Positions 2,074-48,404 of a stretch of 51,904 nucleotides of DNA are shown one piece after another. The notes under the pieces are model-generated. The model ran no database searches and was not told where the DNA came from. It worked only from the letters and a program-made list of their open reading frames with translations. The stretch covers positions 1 through 51,904 of the IMG/VR virus record IMGVR_UViG_3300036783_000038, one strand, 5' to 3'. The position numbers and the translations under genes were made by a program. How positions within the stretch are numbered: the first letter of the stretch is position 1; each line of letters begins with the position of its first letter. Source of the DNA: a virus (Duplodnaviria; Caudoviricetes).

Positions 2074-4698
2074 TTACAACTGATTTATTGCGCTAGCCAT
2101 GCGACGAGCCATCAGTTCACCGCCTGCGGCGTTGGGATGGAGATTGTCACTGGTGTAGACGCTCAGGTTGTATAGATTCAGCCCGCTTTCAGCAAACAAA
2201 TCGCAGACGGGCACGCTGAACAATACGCATACCTCTTTGATTGCCTGAACATATTGCGGAAGGGTAAACCCGGCAGAGTTAGCTGCTGGGTAAACTGGCT
2301 GATTCTCAAACGCCCCGCGCTTGAGCGGTGTGCTGAACATCACTCGCACATTCGGTTTAAGAGTGTATATTTTGTCCAGAACGTAAAACACGTCGTAATA
2401 AAACGATTTTACAGTCGTGTCGTCATAATCCGCCCTGGCGTCTGCAATTGTCCCGAGCCGGCGATTTCCCCCATAATCGTTCGTCCCTCCCAGAATGGAA
2501 ATGAAATCCATCGCATCAATAGTGGTGGCGTTGAGTGAATCAGCCATTGTTCGAACTCCCTGCCCCGGTACGCCGTAGTTCGCAATCTGAACCATACCGG
2601 TCCGCGAAAGAAGCGGAGCAATGTAGTTTCCTGTGTTTGTTATGCTGTCACCAAGGAACCCGATCCCCTTTCCCTGCCAGGGCAATTCCTGTGCTTGCCC
2701 ACCGAAAGGGACATATCCAGCAGGAACAGTCTGACCTGGTGAAACCATCAGGCTGTTCAGGCGTGTCAGGTTGTAGACCTGGAACCGAACAAAATATGCA
2801 TTATCAGGAACAGCATAAGGCGTATTTGCGACCAGATTCTGGAACCCGCTGAGGAATGTACCATCAAGCCCGTAGAACGCTCCTCCCCCTGAACCATATG
2901 TCGACACGAACCAGTCACCGGGAGTGACCATCATTTTAGGCGTGGCAAAATACCCCGCTGAAGATGTCAGCCCACCGGTCTGATAAGAAACACCCGTATC
3001 TGTCAGAGCCAGCTCACTGTTATAGAGATTAACTGCCACTTTTTGCAGTGAGAGCGCAACAGAGCGTGCGGTGATTAGCGCCTGCCTATCGACGTAAGTT
3101 GAAGTCGGCGCCCCGAACGACAGATAGCTCGCAGGGAGTGCTGAGCCTTCAACCATCATCAGTGTGTTTTTTGCTGCAAGATTGTATACCTGAAACCGGA
3201 CATAAACCGCATCAGATGGCGTGGTAAATACGGTACCGTTAGCGATAGTTCCGTTTGAAACCTTCGCTTTATTGACATCAAAGAATACGACCACGCCTGA
3301 AGCAGCGTTCATGATGTATTGCTGCGATGGCTTGACGGGTATCCAGCCGGTAACAAAGTAGTTATTAGCAGCATAGGGTGTTCCGCCCGTTGACAGTGCG
3401 TAATTGTCAAGCGCGATATCCCTGTTGAACATATTGCGCACTGCTGCTAATGTGCCATCAGTAATTCCCCATGCTATTTTCTGTGAAAGCGTAGTTACTT
3501 CCGCGGTTGTCAACGTCCCGAACCCGATATACGAAGACGGAAGCGTAGTACCGCGAATAACCATCAGGCTTTCTTTGCCTGAAAGCGGCGTGCTCTGGAA
3601 ACGCAAGTAATAGGAGCCCGCCGGCACGGTAAAAGCCGTAGCAGCAGTGACAGTGATGTTTGACGTTTTGCTCAGGTCCGGATCGTAGAAGCAGAGCACC
3701 TGTGTGCCGGATGAAAGCATGTAACTCTCCCCCGGCAGTACGGGAATATAGTCAGTAACAAAATAACTGGCATTTGCCGTCAGACTGCCATTAGTCGAGA
3801 GTGCATATCCGTCGTTTGCCCGGTTTTTATCAAACAGGTTCCGCACCAGAGCGTTCGCACGCGCGCTGATATCAATCGCCTGAGCCAGTGCGGTACGTTT
3901 GGCCGAGAAAGGATCGACAAGTCCCGCTCCGACATAATCAGCCGGAACAGTAGTCCCTTTTAGCAGCATCTGAGCATTCTTTCTTGTGCTCAGAGTCTGC
4001 GAGAAACGGATATAACGCGTCCTGGCTGGCGTGGTAAATGCAGCACCCGCAGCGGCACCTGCAACATAGGAAATGAAGGTACCCTGCAAATCATAAAATG
4101 CCAGTTGCGAAACGTTAACGGCAAACACGTACTGCGTGTTACCCAGCGCGGGGATCATGTCACTTGCATAATACGCTGCATTGGCTACCAGAGAACCGGT
4201 TGTGCCCACAGCAAAACCATCCGTAGTCCGCTCTTTGTCGAAATAGTTAATGACCAGTGAGCCGCGCCCTACATCAGAATAAATCTGCCCAGTCACCGCA
4301 CTGACGGAATCCAGATATGACTGAGACGGCATTTTCCGTCCGGTTGCTACAAGCGTACCGGCGTTGTTGATATATTCATCAGCAAGTGAGGATCCGTCAG
4401 GACTTCGTACATAAGTTGACGAACCGAGGGGAATATTCGCAATATCGGCCTGTGCCGCCGCCAGCGTCATGTACTGACGGCTGAGGGGGATTAGGTTCTG
4501 CCGAGTCTCTTCAACTACTCTATCCCCTTCCGCCTTAATGCCGTCGATAGTGTAATGCTCACCGCCGAGGCGATCGGTGTATGTCAGCTCTGTACTGGTG
4601 GCAGCTTTATCCAGCATCGCTCCGGCATAAACCGCGTCACGGATATCTGTGCTCGGTACATCGTTATCTGTTGGGGTAGGTAGTGGTACTTGTGCCAT
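2074..4698 (-). CDS. Tail spike / receptor-binding protein with four tandem ~135-aa modules and a C-terminal SGNH/GDSL esterase
   Basis: Phage tail-anchor-type N-terminus. Repeats begin at aa 151, 287, 422 and 557. SGNH motifs FLGDSIT, GGTND and DNLHPN. Confidence 0.85.
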   Translation of the reverse strand: MAQVPLPTPTDNDVPSTDIRDAVYAGAMLDKAATSTELTYTDRLGGEHYTIDGIKAEGDRVVEETRQNLIPLSRQYMTLAAAQADIANIPLGSSTYVRSPDGSSLADEYINNAGTLVATGRKMPSQSYLDSVSAVTGQIYSDVGRGSLVINYFDKERTTDGFAVGTTGSLVANAAYYASDMIPALGNTQYVFAVNVSQLAFYDLQGTFISYVAGAAAGAAFTTPARTRYIRFSQTLSTRKNAQMLLKGTTVPADYVGAGLVDPFSAKRTALAQAIDISARANALVRNLFDKNRANDGYALSTNGSLTANASYFVTDYIPVLPGESYMLSSGTQVLCFYDPDLSKTSNITVTAATAFTVPAGSYYLRFQSTPLSGKESLMVIRGTTLPSSYIGFGTLTTAEVTTLSQKIAWGITDGTLAAVRNMFNRDIALDNYALSTGGTPYAANNYFVTGWIPVKPSQQYIMNAASGVVVFFDVNKAKVSNGTIANGTVFTTPSDAVYVRFQVYNLAAKNTLMMVEGSALPASYLSFGAPTSTYVDRQALITARSVALSLQKVAVNLYNSELALTDTGVSYQTGGLTSSAGYFATPKMMVTPGDWFVSTYGSGGGAFYGLDGTFLSGFQNLVANTPYAVPDNAYFVRFQVYNLTRLNSLMVSPGQTVPAGYVPFGGQAQELPWQGKGIGFLGDSITNTGNYIAPLLSRTGMVQIANYGVPGQGVRTMADSLNATTIDAMDFISILGGTNDYGGNRRLGTIADARADYDDTTVKSFYYDVFYVLDKIYTLKPNVRVMFSTPLKRGAFENQPVYPAANSAGFTLPQYVQAIKEVCVLFSVPVCDLFAESGLNLYNLSVYTSDNLHPNAAGGELMARRMASAINQL

Positions 4699-40749: not shown

Positions 40750-41523
40750 ATGAATACTGTAGAGCTTCGGAAGATTTTAGATGAGCACAAAGTATGGGTT
40801 GAGTCATTCAGGCATCAGGGAGCCCGTGCCAACCTGTGCGATGCCGACCTGCGCGATGCCGACCTGCGCGATGCCGACCTGCGCGGTGCCGACCTGCGCG
40901 ATGCCAACATGCGCGGTGCCAACCTGTGCGGTGCCGACCTGCGCGATGCCAACATGCGCGGTGCCAACCTGTGCGGTGCCAACCTGTGCGGTGCCAACCT
41001 GCGCGATGCCGACCTGCGCGATGCCGACCTGCGCGGTGCCGACCTGCGCGATGCCAACATGCGCGGTGCCAACCTGTGCGGTGCCAACCTGCGCGATGCC
41101 AACATGCGCGGTGCCAACCTGTGCGGTGCCGACCTGCGCGATGCCGACCTGCGCGATGCCGACCTGCGCGGTGCCGACCTGCGCGATGCCAACATGCGCG
41201 GTGCCAACCTGTGCGGTGCCAACCTGCGCGATGCCAACCTGCGCGGTGCCGACCTGCGCGGTGCCAACCTGCCTGATCTCACCTTTGTCATTATGGGAAT
41301 GGAATACACCATCACGATTACGAATGGGGAGTATCTCCAGGCTGGCTGCCAGAGCCACAAAATCGAAGACTGGCGCCAGTTTTCTAAGCGAGATATAGCA
41401 AAAATGGACGGCCGTTGCGCACTGAAGTTCTACCCTCGCCTGCTGGATGTTATCGACTTCTATATCAGCAAAGGCTCTCGTCCTGAGTGGCTTAATGAGC
41501 CAGAAGCTGAGGAGTGCGAATGA
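40750..41523 (+). CDS. Pentapeptide-repeat protein
   Basis: 30 consecutive A[DN][LM]x[DG] units plus a C-terminal GCQSH..EDW domain. Confidence 0.92.
   Translation: MNTVELRKILDEHKVWVESFRHQGARANLCDADLRDADLRDADLRGADLRDANMRGANLCGADLRDANMRGANLCGANLCGANLRDADLRDADLRGADLRDANMRGANLCGANLRDANMRGANLCGADLRDADLRDADLRGADLRDANMRGANLCGANLRDANLRGADLRGANLPDLTFVIMGMEYTITITNGEYLQAGCQSHKIEDWRQFSKRDIAKMDGRCALKFYPRLLDVIDFYISKGSRPEWLNEPEAEECE
40828..41277 (+). repeat. 15-bp tandem repeat x30
   Basis: gcc-(a/g)ac-(c/a)tg-(c/t)gc-g(a/g)t units; the last unit is degenerate. Confidence 0.95.
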
Positions 41524-43150: not shown

Positions 43151-43305
43151 GCGCGGCGGAAAAATGGGATGACGACGAATTCATTCAGCTGATGAGCAAT
43201 GCGATCGGCGAACGTGATTTCGACGATGACGAACCAGTAAACCTTTCTGCAGAACGGCAGAACCCGGTGATCAGCTGGGATGAATTTGCGGGGAATTTTC
43301 AATGA
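43147..43305 (+). CDS. Small acidic protein (52 aa)
   Basis: MSAAEKWDDDEF..., ATGA coupling. Confidence 0.55.
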   Translation: MSAAEKWDDDEFIQLMSNAIGERDFDDDEPVNLSAERQNPVISWDEFAGNFQ

Positions 43306-43955
43306 CGGAGAAAAAAGTATACGTCGCTATCAGCGCTGTGTCCGGGGAGTTGGCTGAGAAAGGCATCAGCAAGGCCAGAAAACAGGGCAGCCAGGTCAAC
43401 TACGCATTCCGTGGGATCGATGACGTTTACAACGCTCTGGCCCCTGCGCTGGTGAAGCACAAGTTGCTGATCCTCCCGCGGTGTACTGAGCGGTCATCCT
43501 GTGAGCGAACAAGCAAAAATGGTGGCGCGTTGTTTTATGTAACCGTCCGTGCAGAGTTCGACTTTGTCAGCACGGAGGACGGCAGCGTTCATACCGTCGT
43601 CACCTACGGCGAGGCGATGGACAGCGGCGATAAAGCAACGAACAAGGCCATGTCGATTGCGTACAAATATGCTGCCTTTCAGGCGTTCTGCATCCCTACA
43701 GAAGAGACGACTGTGGACCCTGACTATGAGGCTCACCAGGTAAGGCCAGCCGACGCAGATCAGATTCTCGCTGATTTCTCTGCTTACGCAGGCTCAGAGA
43801 ACGATCCGAAGGCCCTCCAGGATAACTACGGGAAAGCATGGAACGACCTTCATGGCTTCCCTGGGCATCAGACGAAGTGCAGGGACGTTACCGGCATCCG
43901 CCTGAGAGAGCTGAAACAAGCCGCAAGTGGTGGCAGCAATGAAAATAACAGCTGA
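43302..43955 (+). CDS. Erf-family single-strand annealing recombinase
   Basis: YAFRGIDDVYNAL...GEAMDSGDKATNKAMSIAYKYA. Confidence 0.85.
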   Translation: MTEKKVYVAISAVSGELAEKGISKARKQGSQVNYAFRGIDDVYNALAPALVKHKLLILPRCTERSSCERTSKNGGALFYVTVRAEFDFVSTEDGSVHTVVTYGEAMDSGDKATNKAMSIAYKYAAFQAFCIPTEETTVDPDYEAHQVRPADADQILADFSAYAGSENDPKALQDNYGKAWNDLHGFPGHQTKCRDVTGIRLRELKQAASGGSNENNS

Positions 43956-44229: not shown

Positions 44230-44384
44230 AACATCACCGCGACGGAATCACCGTGGGAATTATCACTCTGCCCTATTCCATCAATCGCCGGGGATGGATC
44301 GCCCCAAGCGGAGACGTTATCAAAAACCCATTAAAGGCTCAGCGACTGGCTGAGCTGATGAACAGTAAGAAGGTGCTGGCATGA
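44226..44384 (+). CDS. DUF1317-like small protein (52 aa)
   Basis: ITVGIITLPYS..RRGWIAPSGDVIKNPLKAQRLAELMN, with ATGA coupling on both sides. Confidence 0.65.
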   Translation: MKHHRDGITVGIITLPYSINRRGWIAPSGDVIKNPLKAQRLAELMNSKKVLA

Positions 44385-46372
44385 GCGGAAATATCCCCCT
44401 GATTTACGGATCTGTATGTAGTGGTATCGAAGCAGCAACAGTAGCCTGGGAACCGCTCGGATGGAAAGCGGCCTGGTTCTCAGAGATTGAAGCTTTCCCC
44501 TCTGCTGTGCTGGCTGAACGCTGGCCAGAAGTCGTGAACCTGGGCGATATGACAAAAATCGCTGCTGCGGTTCGCGCTGGAGAGGTGCAGGCACCGGATG
44601 TGATGGTCGGCGGCACGCCTTGTCAGGCGTTCAGCATTGCCGGTCTGCGCAATGGCCTTGCAGATGCCCGCGGTCAGTTAACCCTTTCATATGTGGAATT
44701 AGCTAATGCAATTGACGACAAGCGCATCGAGCGCGGAGAAGAAGAAGCAATCTTCGTCTGGGAAAACGTCCCGGGCATCCTCACAAGCCACGACAACGCG
44801 TTTGGTTGCTTTCTGGCAGGACTTGCCGGAGAAAGCTGTGAACTTGAGCCATCAGGGGGAAAATGGACGCACGCAGGTTGTGTGTCTGGACCACAAAGGA
44901 CTATTGCCTGGCGCGTCCTTAATGCTCAATTTTTCGGAGTGGCCCAACGCCGCCGCCGTGTGTTCGTTGTCGCAAGTGCTCGAAAGGGATTCGATCCCGC
45001 AACGGTACTTTTTGAGCTCGACAGCGTGCGCCGGGATACTCCGCCGGGCAGAGAATCGCAACAGGAAACTGCCATTCATGCTGGAAAATGCACTAACGGC
45101 GGTAGTCACTGGGACAACCCGACCAACCCACACCCAACCCTGAATCAGTCAAACAATATTGGCGGAATCGGTGCCAGTAATCAGGAATTATTCAGCCAGC
45201 GCGGTTCTGGCCTCGTATCGTATTCATACTCAGATGTGTCCAGAACTCTTCTTGGAAAGGAAAACGATAGCACCGCAGAAGACCTAGAAACTTATGTTGT
45301 TCATGGTACTCAAGACCCCGATATTAACCGAGAGTTGGCGCACCCACTCGGGCGCAACAACGGGCAAGAAAATGCCTGTATTGCGTTCAGTTATAAAGAT
45401 AATGGAGCAGACGCATCAGAAGACCTGTCTCCGACATTGCGCGCTGGAAATTCAGATAACAGCAACGCTAACAGCGGGCAGCCTCCGGCGATTGCTTATG
45501 CATTCAAACCGGGGCAAGGTGCTAAGGCAAGAGGCATTGGATTCGCTGAAGAGCAATCAACAACGCTTACAAGTGCCAGCAGCGGTACAAATTTAACACC
45601 TGCCGTTATGCATGGGGTATCCGTTCGGCGTCTTATGCCGGTTGAATGTGAGCGTCTGCAGGGATTTCCTGATAACCACACACTGATCTCATGGTGCGGG
45701 AAAGAAGCGACTGAATGCCCGGATGGCCCCCGCTATCGCGCTATCGGCAACAGCATGGCAGTACCGGTCATGCACTGGATTGGCGAGCGTATTGCAGCCG
45801 CATTGCCGGCTAAAAAATCTGCGAGTAATTACGGCGGAAGCAAAACGCCAGTTGAGCAGAGAAACCTGTGGCAAACACCGCTCCCTCTGTTCGTCGCTCT
45901 GGATGCTGAGTTTTGCCTGACACTGGACGCCGCAGCATCAGCTGATAACGCGCTGTGCAGCCGCTATATCACGGAAGAGCAAAATACGCTGACCACCCCA
46001 TGGGCTGACTTCCTGGTAGCGCCTGGATATGTCTGGATTAACCCTCCTTACTGCGATATCACGCCGTTTGTTCAGAAAGCCGCTTCTGAATCTAAAAACC
46101 AGATCGGCACGGTGATGCTTGTCCCGGCTGATACGTCCGTTGGCTGGTTCCGTGAGGCAATCAAGTCTGCCAGTGAGGTACGTTTCATCGTAGGAGGTCG
46201 CCTTGCCTTTATCAACCCGGTAACCGGTAAGCCAGTATCGGGAAATAACAAAGGCTCAATGCTGATTATCTGGCATCCCTATCCTCGCACTCACTGCCAG
46301 TTCACGACCGTTGAGCGCGATGCCCTGATGAATTTCGGTGCCCGATTGATAGCCAAGAGGGAGGCGGCATGA
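44381..46372 (+). CDS. Fused C5-cytosine DNA methyltransferase and phage Dam N6-adenine methyltransferase
   Basis: C5 motifs CSGIE, GTPCQ, WENV, QRRRRVF, RRLMPVECERLQGFP and IGNSMAVPV (aa 1-475). Then WQTP, LDAAAS, NPPY and GRLAF (aa ~482-663). Confidence 0.9.
   Translation: MSGNIPLIYGSVCSGIEAATVAWEPLGWKAAWFSEIEAFPSAVLAERWPEVVNLGDMTKIAAAVRAGEVQAPDVMVGGTPCQAFSIAGLRNGLADARGQLTLSYVELANAIDDKRIERGEEEAIFVWENVPGILTSHDNAFGCFLAGLAGESCELEPSGGKWTHAGCVSGPQRTIAWRVLNAQFFGVAQRRRRVFVVASARKGFDPATVLFELDSVRRDTPPGRESQQETAIHAGKCTNGGSHWDNPTNPHPTLNQSNNIGGIGASNQELFSQRGSGLVSYSYSDVSRTLLGKENDSTAEDLETYVVHGTQDPDINRELAHPLGRNNGQENACIAFSYKDNGADASEDLSPTLRAGNSDNSNANSGQPPAIAYAFKPGQGAKARGIGFAEEQSTTLTSASSGTNLTPAVMHGVSVRRLMPVECERLQGFPDNHTLISWCGKEATECPDGPRYRAIGNSMAVPVMHWIGERIAAALPAKKSASNYGGSKTPVEQRNLWQTPLPLFVALDAEFCLTLDAAASADNALCSRYITEEQNTLTTPWADFLVAPGYVWINPPYCDITPFVQKAASESKNQIGTVMLVPADTSVGWFREAIKSASEVRFIVGGRLAFINPVTGKPVSGNNKGSMLIIWHPYPRTHCQFTTVERDALMNFGARLIAKREAA
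44706..45143 (+). CDS. Overprinted +1-frame ORF inside MTase 1 (putative accessory subunit)
   Basis: 145-codon frame with a protein-like core CSLSQVLERDSIPQRYFLSSTACAGILRRAENRNRKLP. Confidence 0.55.
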   Translation: MQLTTSASSAEKKKQSSSGKTSRASSQATTTRLVAFWQDLPEKAVNLSHQGENGRTQVVCLDHKGLLPGASLMLNFSEWPNAAAVCSLSQVLERDSIPQRYFLSSTACAGILRRAENRNRKLPFMLENALTAVVTGTTRPTHTQP

Positions 46373-47433
46373 CGCCAGTCGCCTACTACAACGAGATAGA
46401 CCCATTCGCGGCGCAGTGGCTGCGCAACCTGATCGCCGCCGGGCATATCGTCCCGGGCGAAGTTGACGAACGGAGTATTGAAGATGTCACACCTGACGAC
46501 CTCAGAGGATTTACCCAGTGCCACTTTTTCGCCGGTATCGGCGTCTGGTCCCATTCCCTCCGCCTCGCCGGATGGCCTGACGATCGCCCGGTCTGGACTG
46601 GTTCCTGCCCTTGCCAGCCTTTCAGCGCGGCAGGCAAAGGAGATGGGTTTGCTGACGAGCGGCACCTTTGGCCCCACTTCTTCCATCTCATCAGCGAGCG
46701 CAGACCTCAGCATGTATTTGGCGAACAGGTTGCAAGCGGTAACGCAAACACATGGTTCGACCTTGTACAAGCAGACCTGGAAGGAGTGGGATACGCCTTC
46801 GGGCTTGTGCCGTTTACGTCAGCGGGCATCGGTGCGCCGCACATCAGAGAACGGGCCTACTGGGTGGCCGACGCCAACCACGATCGACAACAACCAGGTC
46901 AGGGGGCTGGGTGCCGCTGCCAATGCGCCGAACAGGGGATCGACATTGGGAGGGGCGGCCAGAATGGCGGGTTGGGTAACTCCAACGTCGCGCGACTGGA
47001 AAGACTCGTCGGGAATGACAGCACTGCGGAACGGGAAGGAGCGACTGGACCAGCTGCCGCGCCAGGCTTTCACGACGGGATGGCCAACTCCTCAAGTGAG
47101 CAATATCACCAATGCAACGACAGTCCAGATGAGCGGGGATGGTCGAGAAACTCCGAACAAAATCGGCTGGGCGGCGAGCTTATGCGGCCCCTTGAGGTTA
47201 ACGGTTTTTGGCGAGATGCGGACTGGCTCTTATGTCGAGATGGCAAATGGCGTCCAGTTGAACCCGGCACATTCCCGTTGGTTGATGGGGCTGCCGCACG
47301 AATGGGACGAGTCGAGCCCGGGGTGGCAAGAGTGGCAAGCAGCAACCGCGTCGGCCGCCTGAAAGGGTACGGCAATGCCATAAATGCCCAGGCTGCAGCG
47401 GCTTTCATTCGCGCTTATATGGAGGTCGCATGA
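46369..47433 (+). CDS. C5 DNA methyltransferase, alpha subunit (EcoHK31I-like; no motif IX)
   Basis: FFAGIG, GSCPCQPFS, GEQV, HIRERAYW and LKGYGNAI are present. No RxLxPxExxRLxGxP in this frame. Confidence 0.85.
   Translation: MTPVAYYNEIDPFAAQWLRNLIAAGHIVPGEVDERSIEDVTPDDLRGFTQCHFFAGIGVWSHSLRLAGWPDDRPVWTGSCPCQPFSAAGKGDGFADERHLWPHFFHLISERRPQHVFGEQVASGNANTWFDLVQADLEGVGYAFGLVPFTSAGIGAPHIRERAYWVADANHDRQQPGQGAGCRCQCAEQGIDIGRGGQNGGLGNSNVARLERLVGNDSTAEREGATGPAAAPGFHDGMANSSSEQYHQCNDSPDERGWSRNSEQNRLGGELMRPLEVNGFWRDADWLLCRDGKWRPVEPGTFPLVDGAAARMGRVEPGVARVASSNRVGRLKGYGNAINAQAAAAFIRAYMEVA
46484..47362 (+). CDS. C5 methyltransferase beta subunit overprinted in the +1 frame
   Basis: GGAG 8 nt before ATG 46484 (the ORF extends to TTG 46463). 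Carries motif IX-like QLNPAHSRWLMGLPHEW and three GW(P/V)TP repeats. Confidence 0.8.
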   Translation: MSHLTTSEDLPSATFSPVSASGPIPSASPDGLTIARSGLVPALASLSARQAKEMGLLTSGTFGPTSSISSASADLSMYLANRLQAVTQTHGSTLYKQTWKEWDTPSGLCRLRQRASVRRTSENGPTGWPTPTTIDNNQVRGLGAAANAPNRGSTLGGAARMAGWVTPTSRDWKDSSGMTALRNGKERLDQLPRQAFTTGWPTPQVSNITNATTVQMSGDGRETPNKIGWAASLCGPLRLTVFGEMRTGSYVEMANGVQLNPAHSRWLMGLPHEWDESSPGWQEWQAATASAA

Positions 47434-47455
47434 ACAAAAGGTATGGAGTGGAATC

Positions 47456-47800
47456 ATGAGCAAGTCATTAAACGCACGTTGTATTCGTCGCTGGGAAGTG
47501 GAATTCAAACCTTTCTGTGATTCAAAAGTTAACCCCTACTGGCGCAAGCGTGACCTGCGCGGGTATATCCGCGACGCTGCGCTCACCACCGCTTACAGCA
47601 TGGTTGAGAGCATGGCTGAACGTAACGCCAAAGTTGACTTTGACGGCTCCCTACAAGGCTGGACTCCTGAGTTTTCGGCCTGGTATCGGGAACGCCATGA
47701 GCAATACCTGAAAGAAGCGCGGGACTACCTGAATGAAGAAGCCACCAACGACGAGATTGACGAAGTAATAGAGAATGAACTGGAGGCATGGAATGACTGA
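47456..47800 (+). CDS. Hypothetical phage protein
   Basis: GGAG RBS before MSKSLNARCIRRW. Confidence 0.65.
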   Translation: MSKSLNARCIRRWEVEFKPFCDSKVNPYWRKRDLRGYIRDAALTTAYSMVESMAERNAKVDFDGSLQGWTPEFSAWYRERHEQYLKEARDYLNEEATNDEIDEVIENELEAWND

Positions 47801-48404
47801 TATCGCCACATTCACTAATGAACAATTAATCGCCGTGTGCCGTGCTGATGTGGCGGAAATGTCTAAGTTTTTAAAAGAGGGTGAATTCAGCAATCCGTCC
47901 CGCGCGGCCCTGTATTTGCGTATTACTGAAATCGCACTGGCAGCGCTGATGGCTGAGTCCGCGTTTGATCGCGATCAGGTTCGCCGCGAACACGCTGACT
48001 GGTCACAGGCCACCTTCGGCAATGTTGGTCCTGTTGGCCCACTGAAACACCTCAGCAAAGAGGCAATGGAAGCCGCTGCCGAACCCGGCGACCTCTCCGA
48101 GTGGGCCGACATGCAATTCCTTCTATGGGATGCCCAGCGCAGAGCGGGAATCACTGACCAGCAGATTACCCAAGCAATGATTGAAAAGCTGGCGGTGAAT
48201 AAAGCGCGCCAGTGGCCCGAGCCAAAGGACGGGGAACCTCGGATGCATTTTCGAAGCGAAGAGGAATCACTCAACGCAAGGCGCCGCCGTAATCGTGAAT
48301 CTAATGCGCGCGCTCGCGAACGTGAAACGCCAACACAACGCAAAGCTAGACTGGCGAAAAACAGATCGAGAATGGCTCTTCGTCGCAAGGGAGGTGCCAA
48401 ATGA
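47793..48404 (+). CDS. DUF550 dATP/dGTP pyrophosphohydrolase-domain protein with basic C-tail
   Basis: HADWSQATFGNVGPVGPLKHLSKE...EWADMQFLLWDAQRRAG...KLAVNKARQWP. Confidence 0.8.
   Translation: MTDIATFTNEQLIAVCRADVAEMSKFLKEGEFSNPSRAALYLRITEIALAALMAESAFDRDQVRREHADWSQATFGNVGPVGPLKHLSKEAMEAAAEPGDLSEWADMQFLLWDAQRRAGITDQQITQAMIEKLAVNKARQWPEPKDGEPRMHFRSEEESLNARRRRNRESNARARERETPTQRKARLAKNRSRMALRRKGGAK

Follow-up and report, generated by a model that had tools for sequence, protein, structure and literature searches.

A probable dual-coding phage gene for a two-subunit C5 cytosine methylase with a variable cassette array in its nested chain

The stretch of DNA analysed here, which we call the window, comprises the 51,904 nucleotides (nt) of the IMG/VR record IMGVR_UViG_3300036783_000038 (positions 1 to 51,904), a virus of the Caudoviricetes. 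At 46369-47433 on its plus strand lies a gene from which, very probably, one protein is made in each of two reading frames; together the two proteins would form a C5 cytosine methylase of the M.EcoHK31I kind. Frame 0, which is open across all 354 codons in the open reading frame (ORF) listing, encodes the catalytic chain that we call alpha. Frame +1 contains a second ORF, which we call beta and which could start at TTG 46463 or at ATG 46484 and has its stop codon at 47360-47362. The features of both chains, together with those of the neighboring genes, are collected in Table 1.

Table 1. Positions of the features of the alpha/beta gene and of its neighbors in the window
Feature	Position	Strand	Remarks
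Alpha ORF, 354 aa (amino acids)	46369..47433	+	C5 cytosine methyltransferase catalytic chain; motifs I, IV (PCQ), VI, VIII, X
Beta ORF, 292 aa and stop	46484..47362	+	Frame +1, wholly inside alpha; proposed small-domain / specificity subunit
GGAG Shine-Dalgarno-like core for beta	46472..46475	+	8 nt before ATG 46484; formed by alpha Arg-Ser codons
Beta residues 1-43, Ser/Pro/Ala-rich, poorly conserved	46484..46612	+	Passenger of the alpha motif I-IV region; no confident model contacts
Beta residues 44-126, conserved helix and beta-hairpin	46613..46861	+	Predicted alpha-binding part; overlaps alpha motifs IV-VIII
Cassette 1, GWPTP TTIDNN type, 36 aa	46862..46969	+	Catalogue type 2, 33 occurrences
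Cassette 2, GWVTP TSRDWK type, 36 aa	46970..47077	+	Type 0, the commonest, 90 occurrences
Cassette 3, GWPTP QVSNIT type, 36 aa	47078..47185	+	Type 6, 42 occurrences
Beta motif-IX-like segment, QLNP...WLMGLP..W	47255..47305	+	Doubly coded with the conserved C-terminal block of alpha
Alpha linker, residues 181-270	46909..47178	+	Unconserved, predicted disordered; overlaps beta cassettes; pLDDT <50
Alpha C-terminal segment, motif X (YGNA) and stop codon	47179..47433	+	Conserved block; contacts the beta motif-IX-like segment in the complex model
Upstream 663-aa C5 methylase (PF00145) fused to a Dam-type N6-adenine methyltransferase (PF05869)	44381..46372	+	Stop overlaps alpha ATG (ATGA)
Erf-like recombinase gene	43302-43952		
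dATP/dGTP pyrophosphohydrolase domain	47775-48401		PF04447, E 6e-41; two genes downstream of the methylase cluster

Alpha has the properties of one half of a C5 methylase. An earlier reading made from the sequence only had assigned motifs I, IV, VI, VIII and X to frame 0 and noted that motif IX was missing, and this assignment stands, as neither a Pfam scan nor a reading of the alpha translation revealed anything motif-IX-like in that frame. The family profile PF00145 matches alpha above its curated threshold (49.5 bits, cut-off 22, E 5.5e-13) and covers residues 76-170 only, which correspond to profile positions 65-163 of 324. Because the match is limited to these residues, alpha is without the usual C-terminal half of the family, and the combination of variable recognition region and motif IX in one chain, which is usual in PF00145 enzymes, was not found in it. 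TIGR00675 reaches 36.7 bits, below its cut-off of 100.65, and PHROGs assigns alpha to phrog_363 with an E-value of 1.7e-93. Among 62 sequences P81, C82, E119, Q120, R160, R162, G335 and N336 are invariant. In the AlphaFold2 (AF2) model generated from this 62-sequence alignment, residues 1-178 and 335-354 are predicted with confidence, and residues 181-270, a stretch that coincides exactly with the overlap of the beta units, have a predicted local distance difference test (pLDDT) value of less than 50. When the model was searched with Foldseek the top match was M.HhaI (2z6u_A, E 1.6e-9, about 200 columns), with M.HaeIII, DNMT1 and DNMT2 also matched, and the predicted fold is that of an M.HhaI-like large domain.

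Beta is assigned by PHROGs to phrog_1008 (E 9.4e-32), and PHROGs has a further beta family, phrog_31772. It is conserved at both ends. In its first conserved part, where AF2 predicts a helix at residues 70-89 and strands at 95-117, L75, L79, L83 and G91 are invariant and W99 and K100 nearly so. Close to the C-terminus the segment QLNPAHSRWLMGLPHEW contains the invariant residues L259, P261, W266, L267, P271 and W274. The nested ORF had been said to end in this segment, which is indeed present in the +1 frame, but 18 further residues follow it before the end of beta. The GGAG that had been proposed as its own ribosome-binding site is found at the expected place before the ATG.

Relatives of this gene are found in phages of many hosts. 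A Megablast search identified the gene in Salmonella phage epsilon15, in several Klebsiella phages and in 13 of 5426 E. coli genomes, with partial matches to Edwardsiella, Burkholderia, Aeromonas, Erythrobacter and cyanobacterial phages; the hosts of the relatives are Salmonella, Klebsiella, E. coli, Burkholderia, Edwardsiella, Aeromonas, Xanthomonas, Rhodobacter, Erythrobacter and a cyanobacterium. All 14 of the loci taken from GenBank have alpha in frame 0 and beta in frame +1; each of these betas contains 1-4 W-x-T-P units and shares the C-terminal motif. To these 14 and the window we added 228 loci from IMG/VR, found in four scans with the alphas of the window, BcepC6B, K1ind2 and RcSalem as queries, which gives 243 loci. 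Hidden Markov models (HMMs) were built for the N-terminal part of alpha, the conserved N-terminal part of beta, the C-terminal part of beta and the C-terminal part of alpha. These match in relative frames 0, +1, +1 and 0 in 237 of the 243 loci, and the other 6 are truncated at contig ends and consistent with this order. In every one of the 237 complete loci, which have 210 distinct alpha N-terminal sequences, the C-terminal model of alpha lies in frame 0 and beta in +1, and the variable middle, which ranges from 75 to 669 nt, is a multiple of three. Both frames are free of stop codons across the cores in 234 of the 237, and the alpha linker stretch is free of them in 236. The +2 frame over the same span contains 17 stops on average and never fewer than 7. 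No relative with all of the parts in a single frame was seen among the 243 loci, which are sets gathered by likeness to alpha. Beta itself has 6077 relatives among the 8000 candidates scored, and 9921 representatives at 50% clustering. On plasmids a tblastn search found prophage-like copies only and no restriction-linked copy.

Two observations on single relatives may be added here. In L190 and L200, two Kagunavirus-like contigs from IMG/VR, the alpha C-terminal block and the beta C-terminal motif have jointly given way to another version, with the rest of alpha remaining similar to that of its relatives, and the doubly coded C-terminus seems to have been exchanged as one piece. In Edwardsiella phage eiAU (locus L006, 1610-3034) the beta frame runs without a stop into an annotated N-6-adenine methyltransferase coding sequence (CDS) at 2489-3034, with the same frame and stop, and this phage may therefore make a 474-aa fusion of beta and Dam.

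Given that the G+C content of the window is 0.60, a single open alternative frame is weak evidence alone, and it is the comparative data that decide. For the one sequence of the window we shuffled synonymous codons, so that neither the protein nor its codon usage changed. When this was done for alpha the +1 frame remained open over the span of beta in 58 of 20000 trials (p ~0.003), and when it was done for beta the alpha frame remained open in none of 20000, with a mean of 8 stops.

The pattern of variation among relatives is more informative on which frame is under selection. The profile of alpha diversity was calculated from the first 91 loci, of which 3 were skipped; for its two blocks 2 and 5 sequences of odd length were left out, and 76 and 67 distinct sequences were used. 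The third-position diversity of alpha is 0.32 before beta starts, 0.18-0.26 over the first ~45, poorly conserved residues of beta, about 0.1 from motif IV onward, and 0.007-0.08 in the C-terminal block that is conserved in both proteins. Directly after the stop codon of beta it is 0.317. Synonymous variation in alpha collapses wherever conserved beta overlaps it. Within the cassettes the situation is different again. For five cassette types, each with 18-47 distinct DNA sequences, the beta third-position diversity is 0.21-0.43 compared with 0.02-0.16 at positions 1 and 2, and 49-80% of the codon differences are synonymous in beta compared with 5-8% in alpha. Among the three types present in the window, the first has a beta third-position diversity of 0.36 versus 0.09 and 0.05 at positions 1 and 2, the second has 80% of its differing codons synonymous in beta and 8% in alpha, and the third 55% and 5%. 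This third-position excess and the synonymy in the beta frame indicate that beta is a protein under purifying selection, and that over the cassettes alpha is a passenger which is merely kept free of stops. The sequence-only reading had treated +1 as the overprinted frame in the cassette region, and there the roles have to be reversed.

The middle of beta in the window consists of three units of 36 aa that begin with GWPTP, GWVTP and GWPTP and whose Trp codons at 46865, 46973 and 47081 are exactly 108 nt apart. They had been described as three exact 108-bp cassettes. The exact spacing and the unit length are correct, but the units are not repeats at the DNA level: their similarity is confined to the first 14-16 nt, which are 79-81% identical. 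We therefore rejected DNA tandem repeats as their basis, and the word cassette cannot mean a repeated DNA unit here. The equal spacing is also specific to the three unit types of the window, as the commoner types in relatives range from about 29 to 45 aa. When the middle of beta was split at each W-x-T/S-P/A/T in 235 loci and the pieces were grouped by greedy clustering, 684 cassettes (453 of them distinct) fell into about 113 types and 151 architectures. One cassette is present in 20 loci, two in 51, three in 101, four in 58, five in 3 and six in 2, which bears out the expectation that in-frame W-x-T-P units would vary in number, here from 1 to 6, with both frames left open. As in multispecific phage C5 methyltransferases, there are several tandem modules whose number and kind vary between relatives. 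Cassette types recur across distant phages, one of them being common to BcepC6B, Xanthomonas phage PhiXhv-18 and cyanophage Cr-LKS3. Kagunavirus-like phages with nearly identical alphas have one cassette each, of differing types, and so no type is indispensable and a single unit can suffice.

The beginning of beta is less uniform than its end. In most lineages the Asp and Val codons of alpha supply its first ATG, which lies 32 nt upstream of the codon for Gln in the alpha sequence QCHFFAG. In other lineages it lies 18 nt farther upstream or 12 nt farther downstream, each time with a GGAG or GAGGA of its own. Of 113 distinct contexts, 84 have a Shine-Dalgarno-like core 5-17 nt before one of the first two ATGs of beta, compared with 10.5% of control windows from the same genes. 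The Arg-Ser codon pair that forms the GGAG, (A/C)GG-AG(T/C), is present in 49 of 72 distinct contexts. In phage N15 the first part of beta is interrupted by a stop codon and the ORF restarts shortly before the conserved region, and the first 43 residues of beta, as numbered in the window, are therefore probably dispensable.

Structure prediction for the pair of chains, which the sequence-only reading had suggested modelling together, gave a score of 0.91, with 0.00 for the best of three controls. Among 80 solved complexes 58 attained that mark, as did 2 among 110 mismatched pairs, counts that are rough only, since custom alignments were supplied. The runs agree in at least 58% of their contacts, with a pLDDT of the partner of at least 58. 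In the model beta 255-289 touches alpha 13-24 and 334-341, the latter being the motif X helix, and beta 43-117 touches alpha 101-168. Of the cassettes it is mainly the middle one that touches alpha, through beta 159-172 and 186-200. As the pair resembles a split of a fold for which single-chain structures have been solved, the pass may partly reflect this likeness, and we take the prediction as support for binding of alpha and beta rather than as proof. The proposal that a C5 methyltransferase is split here, with one subunit nested in the +1 frame, is upheld, given the frames found in 237 of 243 loci, purifying selection on beta and a complex model that supports binding.

The identification of motif IX in the +1 subunit is less firm. 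What speaks for it is the conserved pattern of the segment, its position and the model geometry, in which it is predicted to pack on motif X, and for this reason we call it motif-IX-like. Several observations weigh against this assignment or against the two-chain interpretation as a whole. None of the 62 beta sequences matches PF00145, even at an E-value of 10, and neither beta alone nor the profile of the 62 sequences finds a methyltransferase in Pfam, NCBIfam or the PDB; the PDB search with the beta profile returned chance matches only, to a dipeptidyl aminopeptidase at E 0.31, and the ESM Atlas gave only unnamed viral clusters. A profile comparison of the whole beta alignment with the single-chain methylase encoded upstream found nothing. 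When hhalign was used to align the beta C-terminus with motif IX of that enzyme the register was right, but the score of 13.6 was equalled or exceeded by 5 of 30 column-shuffled controls. Beta alone also folds poorly in AF2, with a pLDDT of 56.7 that is too poor for a fold search. The start of beta is another problem, as its position varies between lineages and the first in-frame ATG taken alone has a Shine-Dalgarno-like core in just 45 of the 113 contexts; translation of beta is something that we infer. In three of the 237 loci a single stop interrupts one of the frames, that of alpha in L024 and that of beta in L031 and L215, which could be due to decaying prophages or sequencing errors. Finally, our literature search found no methylation specificity for any member of the family.

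Comparison with known enzymes helps to place these results. The likeness to M.EcoHK31I (E. coli HK31, YGGCCR), with which we compare the gene by published description, lies in the second ORF nested in another frame, which is also found here. The sources describe its beta as lying wholly inside alpha in another frame, with both chains needed for activity (PMC2836561, PMC3404938), report that silent removal of the beta start codons abolishes activity (PMC2836561), and state that the beta N-terminus matters for association (PMC2836561, PMC3404938). Together with M.AquI it is given there as one of the two known two-polypeptide C5 methylases (PMC3404938). One difference lies in the placing of the recognition domain, which the literature assigns to alpha together with motifs I-VIII and X, leaving motif IX to beta (PMC2836561), whereas here the variable units are in beta and the alpha linker is unconserved. 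Another is that M.EcoHK31I is part of a restriction-modification pair, whereas the gene of the window lies among phage methylases with no restriction enzyme seen nearby. What is new in comparison with M.EcoHK31I is most likely that the variable recognition region has been moved into the nested chain and is built there from exchangeable cassettes.

A second comparison, by description, is with the multispecific C5 methyltransferases of Bacillus phages (SPR, phi3T, rho11s), which are phage-borne enzymes with short tandem recognition modules between their catalytic motifs. Their modules are said to be about 40-50 aa long and mutually independent, as reportedly set out by Trautner and colleagues in 1996. 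They differ in being single polypeptides in one frame, whereas here the array is in a nested +1 chain. The genes of M.AquI are not known to be nested, and in this they differ from alpha and beta. M.AquI is like our gene in having a natural split into two chains near the variable region, and its small chain is described as carrying the distal variable region together with motifs IX and X (PMC3404938), whereas motif X stays in alpha here. The same source reports that M.SssI, M.HhaI and M.BspRI can be split artificially into inactive N- and C-terminal fragments that reassemble into an active enzyme, and that for M.SssI the best C-terminal fragments begin between motif VIII and the recognition domain (PMC3404938), which is the point where the beta cassettes begin here. 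Those splits are engineered and do not overlap, whereas ours is natural and keeps motif X in the N-terminal chain by means of the linker.

From these comparisons and the complex model we can outline how the enzyme may work. Alpha would be the complete large catalytic domain, made up of motifs I-VIII, a probably disordered linker of about 90 residues and motif X. Beta would be started separately on the same mRNA, at the ATG and GGAG inside the alpha coding sequence. The helix and hairpin part of beta would then dock on alpha, the array of three cassettes would be placed where the variable target-recognition region normally sits, and the motif-IX-like C-terminus would pack on the motif X helix and the N-terminal helix of alpha, so that both chains made from one mRNA could assemble into one enzyme. 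Gain, loss and exchange of cassettes would proceed by multiples of three bases, and both frames would therefore stay open. Of all this, the data demonstrate the conserved frames, the direction of selection, the shuffling of cassettes, the fold of alpha and the signals at the start site; the physical assembly of the two chains, recognition of DNA sequence by the cassettes and protection of the phage DNA against restriction by the host are inferred.

How far the cassettes act on their own is the part of this proposal that is most difficult to judge. That each is an autonomous recognition unit, which would make the enzyme multispecific, we put at only slightly below an even chance. A wider form of the idea is that the gene is the counterpart, in phages of Gram-negative bacteria and cyanobacteria, of the Bacillus multispecific methylases, written in a second frame, with 1-6 autonomous cassettes directed against several restriction systems and exchanged between unrelated phages at the G-W-P-T-P junctions. 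This we regard as tentative and a little less probable than not. A serious rival, possible though somewhat doubtful, accepts the two-subunit enzyme and denies the independence of the cassettes, which would then form one composite domain with a single specificity, or one reader accompanied by spacers or structural repeats. It would explain why a TSRDWK-like type is found in most proteins (90 of the 684 cassettes, 70 occurrences among the first 89 loci) and why this is the cassette that touches alpha in the complex model; additionally, the cassettes are laid out on one plan, with a hydrophobic end and then G-W-x-T-P, as structural repeats would be. It is more difficult to reconcile with the 20 of 235 proteins that have a single cassette, given that the sole cassette of the Kagunavirus-like phages is of differing types that include ones other than TSRDWK, and with the ~113 types and 151 architectures, which look like an assortment of autonomous units.

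The remaining alternatives concern the two-subunit enzyme itself. Beta could be a real protein whose job is unrelated to the methylase, for example an independent anti-defence or DNA-binding protein, as might be expected from the absence of any methyltransferase signature in beta by sequence methods. Against this, alpha has neither the small domain nor the motif IX required by the fold, the conserved ends of beta are predicted to dock on the motif X and N-terminal helices of alpha (0.91 versus 0.00, subject to the caveat on fold likeness given above), and the two frames are never found apart in the 243 loci, and we consider this reading very unlikely. Slightly less likely still is a single chain produced by two programmed ribosomal frameshifts, leading from the alpha N-terminus into the +1 cassettes and motif IX and back into frame 0 for motif X. 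The order of the parts, with motifs I-VIII followed by the cassettes and the motif-IX-like segment and then motif X, is collinear with ordinary C5 methyltransferases and would fit such a chain. However, it does not require the alpha linker to be open, and the linker is stop-free in 236 of 237 loci where 8 stops would be expected by chance; some 80 residues of beta that precede the supposed shift are also open and conserved, and beta has a start of its own, an ATG accompanied by Shine-Dalgarno-like sites; and the conserved C-terminal blocks of alpha and beta share nucleotides, so that they cannot be read serially by frameshifting. On these grounds we rejected the double frameshift. The least credible alternative, that the +1 frame is open from composition (60% G+C and codon bias) and encodes no functional protein, can point to other long alternative-frame ORFs in the region and to gene callers that call any long ORF, which means that the many beta 'proteins' in databases are not evidence of expression, but it is ruled out by the beta-frame selection in the cassettes, where variation sits at beta third positions (49-80% synonymous against 5-8% in alpha), by the 234 open loci of a diverse 237 with at least 7 stops in each +2 frame, and by the shuffles (p ~0.003).

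The enzyme encoded directly upstream of alpha is a single-chain C5 methylase fused to an adenine methyltransferase, to which alpha shows a weak N-terminal match only by BLASTP (E 0.062). Close relatives of this fusion have a C-terminal PF02086 adenine-methylase domain in place of PF05869. Downstream of alpha and beta there are an ORF of unknown function, the dATP/dGTP pyrophosphohydrolase, a DUF7740 protein and an integrase on the minus strand. We saw no restriction enzyme in the neighborhood of the gene. It seems to belong to a group of clustered orphan methylases of the phage, and its role would be anti-restriction. Two further ORFs deserve a comment. A 138-aa ORF at 47384-47800 overlaps the end of alpha by 50 nt, and as its PHROG match starts from residue 25 its true start is probably ATG 47456. 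Farther upstream, four separate parts of a 257-aa ORF at 40750-41520 match phrog_7713; the ORF, which looks internally repetitive, also matches many other PHROGs of unknown function and shows a weak match to a tail-fibre family.

The gene had been expected to be invisible to standard annotation, and this is only partly the case. Both nested ORFs are annotated in phage K1ind2 (GU196280), as a 'C-specific methylase' and an 'Mte8-like protein', and in Xanthomonas phage PhiXhv-18, beta alone is annotated in Cr-LKS3 and PhiBt-E264.1, and PHROGs labels phrog_363, phrog_1008 and phrog_31772 all as 'DNA methyltransferase'. On the other side, in E. coli 914033 (locus L003, 1489-2658) the Prokaryotic Genome Annotation Pipeline (PGAP) splits an intact alpha of 1170 nt into two 'incomplete' pseudogene pieces, with the gap over the cassettes. 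The literature, searched in full text with REBASE, subscription journals and supplementary files outside the search, yielded no account in which dual coding or modularity is ascribed to this phage family; 'Mte8-like' occurs there in one passing mention only, and the reviews and papers on overlapping genes found by the search do not mention the family.

These findings matter for annotation, for the conflict between phage and host, for evolution and for methylation tools. Pipelines that call one frame, or flag the gene as broken, leave a whole subunit absent from most phage and prophage annotations. If the wider idea of autonomous cassettes is true, the dual-coding region, which is about 880 nt here and is represented by thousands of database clusters, would rank with the longest and most widespread cases of same-strand dual coding known from phages, and the textbook placing of the M.EcoHK31I recognition domain in alpha may need another look. 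A specificity subunit built from cassettes would also help to assign orphan 5-methylcytosine motifs in methylomes. M.EcoHK31I has already been used for targeted methylation (PMC2836561), and for the same purpose the natural pairs of alpha and beta could be employed as split methylases whose cassettes are exchangeable. The locus is a clean natural case of the selected frame switching along a gene, from alpha to both, to beta, to both and back to alpha, and modular recombination is bound here by two frames at once. Lastly, if specificity is built from cassettes in a subunit of its own, this would account for the way in which phages of many hosts, temperate as well as virulent, redirect one methylase.

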